64,000 bases of DNA, taken from positions 1 to 64,000 of the IMG/VR virus record IMGVR_UViG_3300042518_001688. One strand, written 5' to 3'. A model generated the notes under the pieces. The model did not search any database, was not told where the DNA came from, and saw nothing but the letters and a program-made list of their open reading frames with translations. The translations under genes and the position numbers were made by a program. This document shows, one piece after another, positions 193 to 14,991 of this stretch (its first letter is position 1; every line of letters begins with the position of its first letter). The stretch is from a virus.

Positions 193-248
193 TCCGCCTG
201 ATGAGTCCGAGTGGTTCTCGGACGAAACACTCTCTTGAGTGTCGCGGG
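193..248 (+). ncRNA. Type I hammerhead ribozyme, predicted cleavage after C243
   Basis: TCCGC-CTGATGA-GTCCGAG(tggtt)CTCGGAC-GAAAC-ACTC(tctt)GAGT-GTC-GCGGG: complete core and three stems. Confidence 0.92.
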
Positions 249-316
249 AAACCGCACATCATTCCTCTAAATGATGTTTGCTGATTAGCTTAGGTCTCAT
301 CAACCTAAGCTTTCTT

Positions 317-411
317 CGGGGTGTAGCCGAATTGGAACAGGCGTAATTCCCAGTAAACATGAACGATGTGGTGATTCTATCCATGTGGGTTCGAGTCCCG
401 TCACCCCGACC
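317..411 (+). tRNA. tRNA-like element with non-canonical anticodon/variable region
   Basis: Acceptor CGGGGTG/CACCCCG-A-CC, D-arm GCC-GAATTGGAACA-GGC, T-arm GTGGG-TTCGAGT-CCCGT; no standard anticodon stem-loop. Confidence 0.65.
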
Positions 412-415
412 TGTC

Positions 416-442
416 CGACCTGAGTACGTCGTTAAACTGCTT
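416..442 (+). ncRNA. Small H-type pseudoknot motif
   Basis: CGAC-CTGAGTAC-GTCG stem; loop GAGTA can pair with downstream TGCTT; related GACCTGAGCAAGTC at 4463-4476. Confidence 0.45.
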
Positions 443-457
443 CTGTGTACGTTAATT

Positions 458-487
458 GGTTGCCTTTATCTTTGGCAACCTTTTCTT
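458..487 (+). terminator. Intrinsic terminator closing the RNA cassette
   Basis: GGTTGCC-9nt-GGCAACC-TTTTCTT. Confidence 0.7.
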
Positions 488-2191: not shown

Positions 2192-3232
2192 TTGAAGTGG
2201 TTATTTCAGTTACCAATGGGTTTGTTTCCAGTGAGTCAACCCAATCCAATAGAGCCTATGCAAGCAAACGGTGAATTCTATCCCGCCATCCTCTTGATTG
2301 AGGTTTGGTGGGTAGGTAAAGATCAGCCCGTCATGATGAGGGCTGCTGGGTTTGTACCTAATGGGTACGGCGATGCTTGGGTTCGCCAATGTAAAACCCA
2401 AGAGGAATTTGATAAGTGGCGTTCGCACTCTCTAGCACTTATCAAAAGGTTCAATGGTCGGGCTCTTGATGTTACTCAATGGCGACCTAGACAACCTGAA
2501 CCTATCCCAACCCCAGTAGTTGACATGGAATCAATTGCCAACAAAATAAAGAAACTGTTGGCATTATCCCAGTCACCTAACGAAGCGGAGGCGATCGCTG
2601 CTTCACAAAAAGCCCAGGAACTGTTGACCCGCCATAATTTATCAATGGCGGATTTAGCTGACTCCTCTCAAGAGGATGTTGAAAGGTACGAGCTAGAAAC
2701 CTTTTCCAAGTTCGTTGGATGGAAAAGTCACTTGGCTGCTGGCGTTGCTAAATACAACGTCTGCAAGTGTATCCTGTCTGAAATCGAGGGGAAAAGTATT
2801 GTATTCATTGGCAGGTCAAGTAATTGTAAAGTTGCTGCACTGCAATATGAATACCTTGCTTCTACCATTGACCGATTAGCTAAAGAGCAGGAAGGCGATC
2901 GCTCTTACAAGAATGCCTTTCGATTGGGTGCTGCCGACAGGATATCCAAGAGGCTGGAATACTTGCGGATAGAACAAGAAGAAGATGGGCTTGAGTCAGA
3001 TGATGGCAATATATCAGCCATTGTCATCACCTCTTTGCACAAAAGACTTGAGGGTGAGATAGATGCTTTTTACAAATCTTACCTGAAGTCAAATAAAATA
3101 ACGAGTCGCGCAGTCAGGGGATCGTCATACTCGTCAAGAGGTGGCTATGCTGCTGGCGATCGCGCCGGTCAATCAGTAAGTCTCAACAAACAAGTTGGGG
3201 CAGGTAATCAGAAACAGTTAGGAGGCAGATAA
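2192..3232 (+). CDS. DUF2786-domain protein
   Basis: KIKKLLALSQSPNEAEAIAASQKAQELLTRHNL and C-terminal GYAAGDRAG pattern. Confidence 0.8.
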   Translation: MKWLFQLPMGLFPVSQPNPIEPMQANGEFYPAILLIEVWWVGKDQPVMMRAAGFVPNGYGDAWVRQCKTQEEFDKWRSHSLALIKRFNGRALDVTQWRPRQPEPIPTPVVDMESIANKIKKLLALSQSPNEAEAIAASQKAQELLTRHNLSMADLADSSQEDVERYELETFSKFVGWKSHLAAGVAKYNVCKCILSEIEGKSIVFIGRSSNCKVAALQYEYLASTIDRLAKEQEGDRSYKNAFRLGAADRISKRLEYLRIEQEEDGLESDDGNISAIVITSLHKRLEGEIDAFYKSYLKSNKITSRAVRGSSYSSRGGYAAGDRAGQSVSLNKQVGAGNQKQLGGR

Positions 3233-4449: not shown

Positions 4450-4588
4450 TCGAATCGAACACGACCTGAGCAAGTCAGAAAGAAGTTAATCTTGATGAAT
4501 TTTGTGAGTTTTAGCAGGAAATAGCGATCGCACGGGGTAACTAAGTGCGATGTTCGATTCGATTATTAAACCGAGGAGACAAAAAGCA

Positions 4589-7481: not shown

Positions 7482-7621
7482 AACCGCACGGGGTGACTAA
7501 GTACTTCGAGATTAAATAACAGGAACAGCGATCGCCCCTCGGTAGATCGCATTCCCCCAATGGTAGCTAATCGGTGATTGGCTTTCATTGGGGGAATTTT
7601 GTTTCACACCCCATAAGGACA

Positions 7622-8996: not shown

Positions 8997-9054
8997 AAAG
9001 CTCACAACCGCACGAAGTAACTAAGTGCAACTAACAACCAAAGGAGCAAAAACA

Positions 9055-9588: not shown

Positions 9589-9672
9589 CAGCGATCGCAC
9601 GAAGTAACTAACCCAAATCTCATGTTCGATTAGGACATGGGATTTTTTTATTATTCACACAGGAGTAAAATC

Positions 9673-14909: not shown

Positions 14910-14991
14910 AGTATCAGGATATATTTTAGATATAAGCCGCACGGGGTGACTAAGTGCGGTATGTTCGATTCGATTATTACCAAGGAGAGCT

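Follow-up and report, generated by a model that had tools for sequence, protein, structure and literature searches.

A stretch near the left end of the IMG/VR virus record IMGVR_UViG_3300042518_001688 can be read as an accessory non-coding RNA-processing module that is situated within a longer phage transcript and does not form its start; we assign this reading a probability of about 0.5. The cassette probably cuts this transcript and shields parts of it, using a hammerhead ribozyme, a tRNA-like domain and a pseudoknot that are arranged one after the other. The window, i.e. the whole stretch of DNA analyzed, comprises 64,000 nt from base 1 of the record, which is fragmentary (83,408 nt, 71% complete). 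By sequence inspection we located all RNA elements that had been predicted for 193–487, with coordinates that were exact or off by 1–2 nt. The features are as follows:

1–127, + strand: upstream exact repeat of 205–331 (100% identity over 127 nt)
128–170, + strand: linker of 43 nt, specific to the form that the locus has in this contig (three DNA runs gave no cover)
171–192, + strand: hammerhead leader, at the left end of the cassette (unitig junctions)
193–248, + strand: type I hammerhead, predicted cut C243/G244 (core, three stems, relatives)
244–255, + strand: GNRA hairpin GCGG-GAAA-CCGC at the predicted new 5' end (sequence, re-pairing count, energies)
256–277, + strand: hairpin 2, 7 bp (256–262 with 271–277), loop UCCUCUAA (thermodynamic prediction only; no relatives)
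287–311, + strand: hairpin 3, 9 bp (287–295 with 303–311), loop CUCAUCA (thermodynamic prediction only; no relatives)
317–409, + strand: tRNA-like domain, discriminator A409 (RF00005 match, likeness to tRNA arrays, CRISPR spacer)
414–450, + strand: 37-nt direct repeat, located at either side of the cassette in other lake runs (unitig evidence)
416–442, + strand: H-type pseudoknot YGAC-CU-GAGUA-Y-GUCG-UUAAAC-URCUY (copies in phages; coremin spacer)
458–487, + strand: terminator-like hairpin, 7 bp (4 G-C) with a 9-nt loop, then UUUUCUU at 481–487 (seen directly)

Intergenic hammerheads of phages have been known since 2011. The locus offers a compact and testable case of ~320 nt, which lines up a ribozyme cleavage site with a probable substrate of RNase P/Z and a probable stop for an exonuclease.

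Locus arrangement and copy number of the cassette

The contig derives from a freshwater cyanophage frequent in lake metagenomes. In the upstream repeat (1–127) the hammerhead lacks everything before stem II and the tRNA-like domain is limited to its first 15 nt, while all three hairpins are present; the first base of the contig falls within this copy. Its length of 127 nt is the same as the largest k used in JGI metaSPAdes runs, and we read the contig start as a graph node of a tandem repeat. Because the contig starts inside a repeat, the cassette does not stand at the head of the early region, as had been proposed: position 1 is a mere fragment end, and contigs of 9.3–10.9 kb precede the cassette in three other runs, which places at least 9 kb of sequence upstream of it. 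In the DNA runs X3, X6 and X7 the contig bases 1–170 were not seen, and the copy at 1–127 had no placement of its own. We considered the linker (128–170) as a diverged copy of the core and rejected this, with a local alignment score against 332–520 of 17 compared to 16.8 ± 2.8 for shuffled sequences.

In three independent lake metagenome runs we observed the order knot–cassette–knot, with one to two copies of a 243-nt cassette. In other runs a preceding copy of 414–450 meets the cassette at base 171: in X3, unitigs join 421–450 directly to 171–443, and in X6 and X7, 421–450 reaches 180–443 via TGGAGAATATTT. The 37-nt unitig (414–450) showed 2.3–3.4 times the depth of its flanks and the cassette 1.1–1.8 times in three lake runs, with about one cassette copy in X3. 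The arrangement of the locus differs between samples, the tandem unit measuring 204 nt in this contig and 280–283 nt in X6 and X7, and the cassette (171/180–443) was identical across three studies with 0 other letters. At the DNA level the cassette may be one module in a knot-punctuated operon. As it is bracketed by knots, its copy number would shift by unequal crossing-over.

A type I hammerhead and the predicted refolding of its 3' product

The hammerhead at 193–248 is a complete type I ribozyme for which cleavage activity is predicted from its sequence. Stem I pairs C194–C197 with G244–G247, plus U193·G248 (4–5 bp), and is open; the core CUGAUGA occupies 198–204; stem II (205–211 with 217–223, 7 bp) is closed by the loop UGGUU; GAAA follows at 224–227, and stem III (227–232 with 237–242, 6 bp) is closed by UCUU. 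Cleavage is predicted behind C243 of the GUC site, and A227 pairs with U242. The element therefore shows the type I consensus core (CUGANGA, GAAA, UH site, A15.1–U16.1), an open stem I and loop-closed stems II and III, so that the claim of a complete hammerhead, with the core residues and three stems all in place, holds. The Infernal check that had been suggested for it failed: Rfam Hammerhead_1 (RF00163) gave 20.3 bits at a gathering threshold of 34 (E 0.041 in 700 nt). As none of 15 related loci with equally clear hammerheads reached this threshold either, the RF00163 model does not reach this phage lineage.

For the search elsewhere we used a pattern that fixed the core and stem II only, and 26 of the 30 distinct matches were complete (stem III, UH and stem I), compared to 0.2 in shuffled sequences. 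Among 36 distinct hammerheads, stem II occurred in variants such as GUCCG, GCCGG, GGGAGG, GGGGAG and GUUCGG. Compensating stem changes maintain the hammerhead in two relatives, namely L034, which lies beside an ortholog of ORF 1090–1500 and has stem II GGGGAG/CUCCCC, CUGACGA and a GUA site, and L053, a locus in a cyanobacterial genome, with the stems UUCGG/CCGAA and ACCC/GGGU. The hammerhead family is common between phage genes.

Cleavage after C243 would give an RNA that starts at G244, in agreement with the proposal that self-cleavage sets the 5' end of a structured non-coding RNA. The hairpin at 244–255 takes over the 3' strand of stem I as well as the loop II partner, as loop II (UGGUU, 212–216) is able to form 5 bp with AACCG at 250–254. 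We calculated nearest-neighbour energies of −26.0 kcal/mol for the hairpin form versus −23.6 kcal/mol for the catalytic fold, which is not the minimum-energy fold (−23.6 versus −26.0 to −28.3 kcal/mol). The re-pairing 4-mer was found in 17 of the 36 hammerheads (2.3 expected); energies and counts both agree with the predicted competition of a GNRA hairpin with stem I. Pairing between loop II and the start of the 3' product is possible in 22 of the 36, the window included, where 13.7 are expected.

The tRNA-like domain, the hairpins and the terminator-like element

Infernal matched the domain at 317–409 to the tRNA model RF00005 with 32.9 bits, above the gathering threshold of 29. The acceptor arm (7 bp), the D arm (loop with GG) and the T arm are canonical, and the T loop UUCGAGU fits the consensus. 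The anticodon arm is swapped for an irregular hairpin of ~31 nt, which appears in the RF00005 alignment as a 29-nt insert with no stem of five pairs and no 7-nt loop. Because the anticodon loop is missing, the domain is not a decoding tRNA. ARAGORN reported no tRNA with default settings and needed an ad hoc 17-nt 'intron' or lowered thresholds to call one. A tmRNA was considered and dropped, as the tmRNA mode of ARAGORN found none. The isolated domain folds into the cloverleaf at −20.8 or −21.5 kcal/mol versus −29.3 kcal/mol for the minimum-energy fold, a deficit of ~8 kcal/mol that is weak evidence because energy models frequently miss genuine tRNAs.

By sequence the domain is a mosaic: the D arm agrees in 20 of 20 positions with tRNAs encoded in cyanobacterial arrays (L065, L066), the T arm together with the acceptor 3' strand agrees in 21 of 22 with tRNA-Gly(CCC), and the trailer behind the domain is similar to that of a host tRNA-Tyr in L054. 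A CRISPR spacer in L063, a locus of a cyanobacterial genome, matches 374–407 at 29 of 34 positions, with two T-stem changes that preserve pairing; it is the only one of the 22 spacers in this array that matches the phage. We discarded the spacer as a sign of transcription, since the array is an orphan, with tig-clpP-clpX on one side and housekeeping genes on the other, and a Cmr2 gene lies on another contig.

Both the hairpins at 256–277 and 287–311 and the terminator-like hairpin (stem 458–464 with 474–480) are present in the sequence as had been described, and the fold z-score of 185–490 is −4.33. A terminator scan made no call at 458–487; the scan is limited to loops of 8 nt and the loop here has 9 nt. 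The three hairpins are without comparative support, because no other locus pairs a hammerhead with a tRNA-like element.

A coremin-like knot at the borders of RNA units

The claim of a pseudoknot was borne out at 416–442, where S1 (416–419 with 428–431) and S2 (422–426 with 438–442) form a near-invariant motif of 27 nt. Over 19 distinct copies 95.9% of the cells are paired; covariation is weak, the observed score being reached by shuffles in 76 of 500 trials. The knot is the part of the locus with the widest reach. It is carried by 26 IMG/VR loci and 100 GenBank phage records and was found in phages of Staphylococcus (S. aureus), Lactobacillus and Anoxybacillus, in cyanophages (Cylindrospermopsis) and in a single RNA-virus contig. 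Its start lies 6–19 nt past the stop codon of the preceding gene in 16 of 27 loci. Phages of S. aureus have it between the minor head and scaffold genes, and Cylindrospermopsis virus RM-2018a carries three knots after consecutive small genes and three more in an inverted copy. Elsewhere, too, the knot lies at borders of RNA units, before genes and, in L093, before a tRNA. Positions 431–440 of the window (GUUAAACUGC) match the coremin spacer GUUAAACUAC at 9 of 10 positions, and knot copies with UACUC (L083, L084) match it at 10 of 10. Two other assignments were rejected. The promoter label in Staphylococcus phage records is a BPROM prediction, and the motif is present in an RNA virus too; a pistol or other catalogued ribozyme found no Rfam match at E ≤ 10.

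Relatives of the cassette and expression

Structure was expected to be conserved in relatives. This held for the hammerhead and the knot, but neither for the three hairpins nor for the complete cassette, of which we found no relative. No other locus has a tRNA-like element behind its hammerhead: Rfam matches numbered 0 in 15 related loci, the Cylindrospermopsis virus has no such element, and ARAGORN saw no tRNA in the 600 nt that follow the other hammerheads (L002–L036). GenBank phages searched with 1–600 gave no match. IMG/VR yielded 0 matches each in exact scans with the T arm, the 37-nt core and a spacer-derived 25-mer, 0 with a degenerate T-arm pattern, and no relative of the protein of ORF 562–891. 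A metagenome scan with 31 nt of the hammerhead returned the L010 contig only. The 18-mer at the 5' end of the tRNA-like domain had 8 genome matches, which is near chance; seven are apparently coding and one lies in a Fischerella tRNA array. Among cyanobacterial genomes, 9 of 401 match 171–490 at E ≤ 0.01 and 97 of 401 match 317–470 at E ≤ 0.05, mostly in the T arm (query 68–91), and the 11 loci inspected among the latter are tRNA-Gly(CCC). With 244–384 as query, 4 of 389 genomes matched at E ≤ 0.005, none of them related to the hairpins, and L081 is without a hammerhead. In the one metatranscriptome considered (RNA run X20), 171–413 was uncovered, which is no evidence of silence; cover was restricted to 414–473 and 602–921 of a relative.

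A proposed mechanism and its alternatives

We propose that upstream genes supply the transcription through the locus. The hammerhead would fold with stem I as CCGC/GCGG and loop II UGGUU docked on AACCG, and would cut after C243. In the released RNA, G244–C255 would close into the GNRA hairpin, whereby both hammerhead contacts would be lost, religation blocked and the 5'-OH end capped. The acceptor, D and T arms of a tRNA are the parts read by RNase P and the tRNA 3' enzymes, and given that these arms are intact at 317–409, RNase P may cut on the 5' side of the domain and the tRNA 3' enzymes on its 3' side. The products would be a three-hairpin RNA of 73 nt (244–316), a tRNA-like RNA of ~93 nt, and a 3' piece that starts 7 nt before the knot and finishes at the putative terminator. 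By its likeness to coremin, which stops Xrn1, the knot could mechanically halt an exonuclease that runs 5'-to-3', in these hosts RNase J. A wider reading is tentative, and we regard it as possible at best: the phage knot as a coremin-type RNase J stop that makes up, with the hammerhead and the tRNA mimic, a kit for carving end-protected small RNAs, the knots being crossover points through which such modules spread between phages and multiply. If the knot does block RNase J, it would represent a cross-kingdom way to shield RNA ends and a small transcript-stabilising tool for Gram-positive bacteria and cyanobacteria.

The 3' product might also act whole, as one stable RNA of ~240 nt (244 to ~487) in which the tRNA-like domain is structural or binds a protein and is no cutting signal. 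Its contiguous parts with a terminator-like hairpin at the end would suit such an RNA, as would a domain that has no anticodon loop to decode with and whose predicted minimum-energy fold, not being a cloverleaf, could escape RNase P. However, three intact arms with a consensus T loop, and a knot that marks the borders of RNA units in other loci, speak for processing; as the tRNA-shaped element sits in the middle of the RNA, further cutting of the 3' product is more likely than an intact 240-mer, and we consider the single RNA unlikely. Still lower we rate the idea of an ordinary hammerhead that divides phage messages, next to a tRNA-like domain and hairpins that are the decaying, functionless remains of a captured tRNA gene or of a former attachment site. 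The patchwork of host-like tRNA pieces, the Tyr-like trailer, the absence of the cassette from the closest phage relatives (L033, L034, MH636380) and the rearrangement of the locus from sample to sample would all follow from such an origin, but scrap is hard to reconcile with three perfect tRNA arms beside an anticodon arm that alone is replaced, with T-stem pairing kept in the spacer homologue and with the letter identity of the cassette in three studies. Moreover, no tyrosine integrase or resolvase-family (serine) recombinase was found in the 83 kb, with 29% of the genome missing, and the L054 contig is without an integrase.

The short stem I (4–5 pairs), its absence from the minimum-energy fold and the Rfam score under gathering raise the question whether, in its native context, stem I loses to the GNRA hairpin and other pairings and leaves the hammerhead inactive. 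We think this very improbable: 17 of 36 hammerheads, from several lineages, combine a short stem I with a strand downstream that can re-pair, a loop II contact would contribute pairs not counted in the energy model, and every core residue is consensus. We give the least credence to tandem hammerheads that release unit-length RNA with 5'-OH and cyclic-phosphate ends, to be ligated into circles as in retrozymes. Tandem copies were indeed found, and Perreault et al. (PMC3088659) suggest circular products for clustered phage hammerheads as a possibility; they also report that such products were sought and none was found, and run X3 has only about one cassette copy. Taken together, we favor the processing module within a longer transcript.

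Comparison with known systems

The knot most resembles coremin/xrRNA_C of RNA viruses of plants and fungi (Dilweg et al. 2019, PMC6546385; 2023, PMC10520033 and PMC10321173), where a short first hairpin is followed by the spacer GUUAAACUAC, and mutation shows that this spacer is needed for Xrn1 stalling in plant viruses. Phage copies read GUUAAACURC at this place, the tested coremin heptaloop CGAGUAA resembles the phage loop CUGAGUAY, and the coremin papers likewise propose a loop–spacer pseudoknot. However, the stem letters are reversed (GAC/GUC in the phage knot, GUC/GAC in coremin). The phage stem YGAC/GUCG carries an 8-nt loop, CUGAGUAY, for which five ordinary pairs with URCUC are possible, whereas the coremin loop is either of the YGAD type or a longer one beginning with YG. 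The phage loop has its G at position 3 and not 2, and of the coremin loops the tested heptaloop comes closest to it. A second hairpin comes right after the spacer in coremin, while the next hairpin behind the phage knot (458–480) lies 16 nt on. The hosts of the phage knot are bacteria, which are without Xrn1; the terms 'phage' and 'RNase J' are absent from PMC10520033 and PMC10321173, as are 'bacteriophage' and 'prokaryot' from PMC10520033 and 'bacteri' from PMC10321173. GP20-b (RF03003) takes the same place as the knot, before GP20/scaffold genes of Firmicutes phages. It matched weakly at the knot start of phage B236 (11 bits versus a gathering threshold of 36.2), gave no match at 416–442 and scored 15.2 bits elsewhere in the window's genome.

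Retrozymes and other tandem hammerhead repeats share tandem units that each carry a type I hammerhead; unlike them, the locus here belongs to a DNA phage and has no more than one to two copies. Type I hammerheads of phages and prophages (RF00163; PMC3088659) have in common with ours the core, three stems, an open stem I and an intergenic place in phage operons, and their loop II–stem I contact may have a counterpart here. They lie beside genes and cleave polycistronic transcripts in vitro. The original prediction of a different layout is therefore only partly right: phage intergenic hammerheads have already been published in that source, and what differs is the cargo, which is non-coding here (hairpins and a tRNA look-alike), while in other phage cases the hammerhead is followed by a ribosome-binding site and a gene. 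Theta ribozymes (Kienbeck et al. 2024, PMC10879173), whose description does not mention hammerheads, likewise couple a self-cleaving ribozyme to a tRNA-shaped RNA in phage. They are HDV-like, are located at the 3' trailer of the tRNA and serve real suppressor tRNAs, whereas in our locus a hammerhead lies 73 nt upstream of a tRNA look-alike that does not decode.

The hammerhead ribozyme

The original prediction had listed a hammerhead, three hairpins, a tRNA-like domain, a pseudoknot and a terminator, and by direct reading of positions 181-490 we found each of these elements in place.

Hammerhead parts (from direct reading) and hairpins of the cassette
C194-C197 with G244-G247: hammerhead stem I
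CUGAUGA: hammerhead core
7 bp, loop UGGUU, GAAA after it: hammerhead stem II
6 bp, loop UCUU: hammerhead stem III
GUC, predicted cut after C243: hammerhead cleavage site
G244-C255: GNRA hairpin, GCGG-GAAA-CCGC
256-277 and 287-311: hairpins 2 and 3, plain inverted repeats

The Rfam model Hammerhead_1 spans 192-249 end to end with 20.3 bits, under its gathering score of 34; since none of 15 related loci, all with plain hammerheads, reached gathering in Rfam, this score was not counted against the window hammerhead. With a search pattern in which nothing but the core and the opening pairs of stem II was fixed, we obtained 31 matching IMG/VR loci. Stem III, UH and at least four stem I pairs were also in place in 26 of the 30 distinct matches not situated at a locus end, compared to 0.2 for shuffled flanks, and the remaining 4 were off by one mismatch or bulge. 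Of the relatives, two are the most telling. The locus L034 carries an ortholog of the window ORF 1090-1500 (65% identity) and, ~180 nt upstream of it, a hammerhead with stem III as in the window, a stem II that is entirely different yet paired (GGGGAG/CUCCCC), CUGACGA and a GUA site, while the hammerhead of L053, within a cyanobacterial genome, shows UUCGG/CCGAA and ACCC/GGGU. The window hammerhead is a genuine member of the known class. Clear type I hammerheads, all under Rfam gathering, were seen in the freshwater phage contigs L003, L006, L009, L012, L013, L019, L027, L029, L031, L032 and L034, and L006, L012 and L031 have gene dividers of two kinds, hammerheads and diverged knots. At 152-181 a promoter-like TTGAGA-18-AATAAT (10/12) crosses the 170/171 junction and ends 12 nt 5' of the hammerhead; 2 such sites were observed in 1200 nt against 1.7 expected, and this one may be due to chance.

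The 3' product

The complement of the first four letters of the product occurs 7-34 nt further on in 17 of 36 distinct complete hammerheads (2.3 in shuffles of that stretch). These 17 represent a few lineages (GUGGG, GCGG, UGCG); as the loops between the arms vary widely among them, we regard the re-pairing as kept and not merely inherited. Loop II can pair with the letters just 3' of stem I (UGGUU/AACCG in the window, UGGU/ACCA in L034, UGGUUA/UAACCA in L023), and its pairing with the product start was found in 22 of the 36 hammerheads against 13.7 expected, a modest excess. Pseudoknots of this kind are, according to Perreault et al. (PMC3088659), what usually keeps stems I and II in contact. 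Because the GNRA hairpin re-uses the 3' strand of stem I together with the partner of loop II, the same 12 letters would belong to the catalytic fold until cleavage and form a terminal hairpin from then on. That this hairpin competes with stem I, as had been proposed, agrees with the energy model, in which the hairpin form (-26.0 kcal/mol) is ahead of the catalytic fold (-23.6 kcal/mol) by 2.4 kcal/mol; on these energies cutting may be slow. The fold of 185-490 was better than 100 of 100 shuffles (z = -4.33). No relatives of 244-316 were found among GenBank phages and cyanobacterial genomes, so that hairpins 256-277 and 287-311 are without comparative support.

The tRNA-like domain

RF00005 matched 317-409 with 32.9 bits (gathering 29), aligning the acceptor stem and the D and T arms with high posterior probability; in the position of the anticodon arm it has a 29-nt insert, which may form an irregular hairpin (345-348/373-376, 350-352/369-371, 358-360/366-368). 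ARAGORN reported no tRNA in the domain at default settings; hits appeared only when a 17-nt intron was allowed arbitrarily or the thresholds were lowered. The cloverleaf-like fold lies ~8 kcal/mol above the minimum-energy fold, which pairs the variable region with the T arm. Judged by sequence identity, parts of the domain look host-derived: the D arm is identical (20/20) to odd 75-nt tRNAs of cyanobacterial tRNA arrays (L065, L066), and the T arm plus 3' acceptor strand shares 21 of 22 positions with tRNA-Gly(CCC) from many genomes. In Fischerella muscicola PCC 7414 (L038:5700-6010, minus strand) a tRNA array has spacers that recur (..AAGCTTACATAC), and at one point a T arm plus 3' acceptor strand runs straight into a 5' acceptor strand with its D arm, an order that results in a weak permuted-tmRNA match (23.5 bits).

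One cyanobacterial genome, G733, contains a CRISPR array of 23 repeats (L063:241-1871, G733:C76) whose spacer 18 agrees with 374-407 in 29 of 34 positions when counted by hand (BLAST 87% over 30-31 nt); in the variable region, which is not tRNA sequence, 10 of 11 letters agree. Two T-stem changes leave the pairing intact (U.G to C-G, G-C to G.U), and two T-loop changes retain the purine at position 57. We took this match as evidence that a related phage carries a homologue of the tRNA-like element; the remaining 21 spacers gave no match to the window's phage. The array is an orphan, located between tig-clpP-clpX and housekeeping genes, and is therefore uninformative on transcription.

The knot

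What separates the tRNA-like domain from the terminator is more than filler, and its letters permit an H-type pseudoknot of 4 + 5 pairs. A 21-nt pattern from 417-437 was found in 26 IMG/VR loci, and BLAST placed the knot in 100 phage records of GenBank, 88 of them from Staphylococcus, 8 from Lactobacillus and 2 each from Cylindrospermopsis and Anoxybacillus phages. All 27 loci examined have it between genes, on the coding strand. In 16 it starts 6-19 nt past the stop codon of the ORF before it; in the remaining 11, no ORF of at least 45 aa ends that near. Firmicutes phages carry it in the gap that separates the Mu F-like minor head gene from the scaffold gene. Cylindrospermopsis virus RM-2018a has one after each of three consecutive small genes, plus an inverted copy of the region; all six knots are directly 3' of a small gene and ~25 nt before the next ribosome-binding site, and two have an A-U pair where other copies have G-C. 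A 4.8-kb RNA-virus contig (L083) has the knot between its RdRP_1 and Viral_coat ORFs, which argues for action at the RNA level.

Knot copies in two viruses
MH636380.1 (L110, Cylindrospermopsis virus RM-2018a), 2332-2358, 2638-2664 and 3002-3028: knots; the inverted ones are at about 98.6-99.3 kb in the record
L083:2082-2108, minus strand of the locus: knot of the RNA-virus contig, letter-for-letter the phage consensus with UACUC

Among 19 distinct copies, pairing held in 95.9% of cells; pair 10-24 is U.G in 12, C-G in 5, U-A in 2 and never C-A, and pair 7-27 is G-C in 9, G.U in 5, A-U in 1, U.G in 1 and mismatched in 3. Most columns were fixed by the search pattern, and a shuffle control was not beaten (51/500 for cells paired, 76/500 for covariation).

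The phage contig L093 (7233-7306, 7728-7754, 9416-9518) contains a pistol ribozyme (60.2 bits), two knots and a tRNA 9 nt past the second knot, and a full tmRNA (99.9 bits) lies at L090:7520-7875 on a viral contig that also has the knot. In a cyanobacterial element (L062:900-1620, G476:C56) the knot follows one gene, a repeated leader (hairpin GCTGC..GCAGC, then ACATCAAGAGGTAA) stands ahead of two genes, and the contig encodes a tyrosine integrase at a distance of 27 kb.

Architecture of the locus and host

Positions 1-127 are an exact repeat of 205-331, and the contig starts at the first base of the repeat. We compared the locus with Logan contigs from three DNA runs of different studies, in which 1-170 is uncovered and 421-450 is joined to 171-443 instead, with three extra T at the junction in two of the three. 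The 37-nt unitig 414-450 has 2.3-3.4x the depth of its flanks and the cassette unitig 1.1x, 1.8x and 1.65x. These contigs allow a single linear order, in which the cassette, present once or twice, has knots on both sides and lies between upstream and downstream DNA. The locus had been predicted to be the head of the early region; it is instead a module, which a 9.3-10.9 kb contig enters from the left at 414. Cassette-free sites exist as well, since in the RNA contig of a relative the end of a gene runs straight into 414-473 and the knot of L062 follows an unrelated gene. Unequal crossing-over between the flanking knots would be an easy source of changes in cassette copy number, and the window contig's own form (204-nt period, linker 128-170) is a second, different, putative duplication.

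The source, an IMG/VR virus record, has 83,408 nt, is classed as linear and 71% complete, and contributes its bases 1-64000 to the window. GGCGATCGC-type repeats, known as HIP1, are present in the window and, together with sequence matches, point to filamentous freshwater cyanobacteria as host. The first 1500 nt are present in 20 public runs (19 labelled lake-water/freshwater, 1 marine), with at least half of the sampled words in 12. A hairpin, CGCAC-GGGGTRACTAA-GTGCG, has five window copies (4527-4551, 7485-7502, 9009-9028, 9596-9611, 14937-14959), several immediately 5' of ATGTTCGAT gene starts, and makes up another intergenic module in this phage besides the cassette, of RNA or DNA. Outside the window, in the head-gene region (G000:C1:76387-76442, the window's own genome), we saw a weak GP20-b-like match (15.2 bits, gathering 36.2).

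Proposed working and comparison with known systems

What the data show is the sequence anatomy, hammerhead family membership, the knot's spread and the module structure in populations. In the proposed working, the cassette would be transcribed from upstream, the hammerhead would cleave and its 3' product refold, RNase P/Z might cut, an exonuclease would stall, and the released RNAs may have roles of their own. The hosts of these phages are not known to have Xrn1.

Hammerheads that divide phage messages are already in print (PMC3088659); a hammerhead with non-coding cargo and a tRNA mimic, and a coremin-like knot in DNA phages, are both absent from the literature searched. RNase J has been studied in Staphylococcus and Synechocystis, judging from paper titles; our literature search found no paper linking xrRNA, RNase J and phage, and two 2023 coremin papers (PMC10520033, PMC10321173) mention neither phage nor RNase J, nor did the bacteria-related words sought in them occur. 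The former gives the coremin 20-mer as GUCCGAAGACGUUAAACUAC, and mutations in PMC6546385 showed that its 10-nt spacer is required for Xrn1 stalling. Although coremin needs a second hairpin directly after the spacer, which is absent from the knot and places it outside that class, the phage knot has the same spacer (GUUAAACURC) 3' of a short hairpin, and its loop CUGAGUAY is close to the coremin heptaloop CGAGUAA, which was tested and is Xrn1-resistant.
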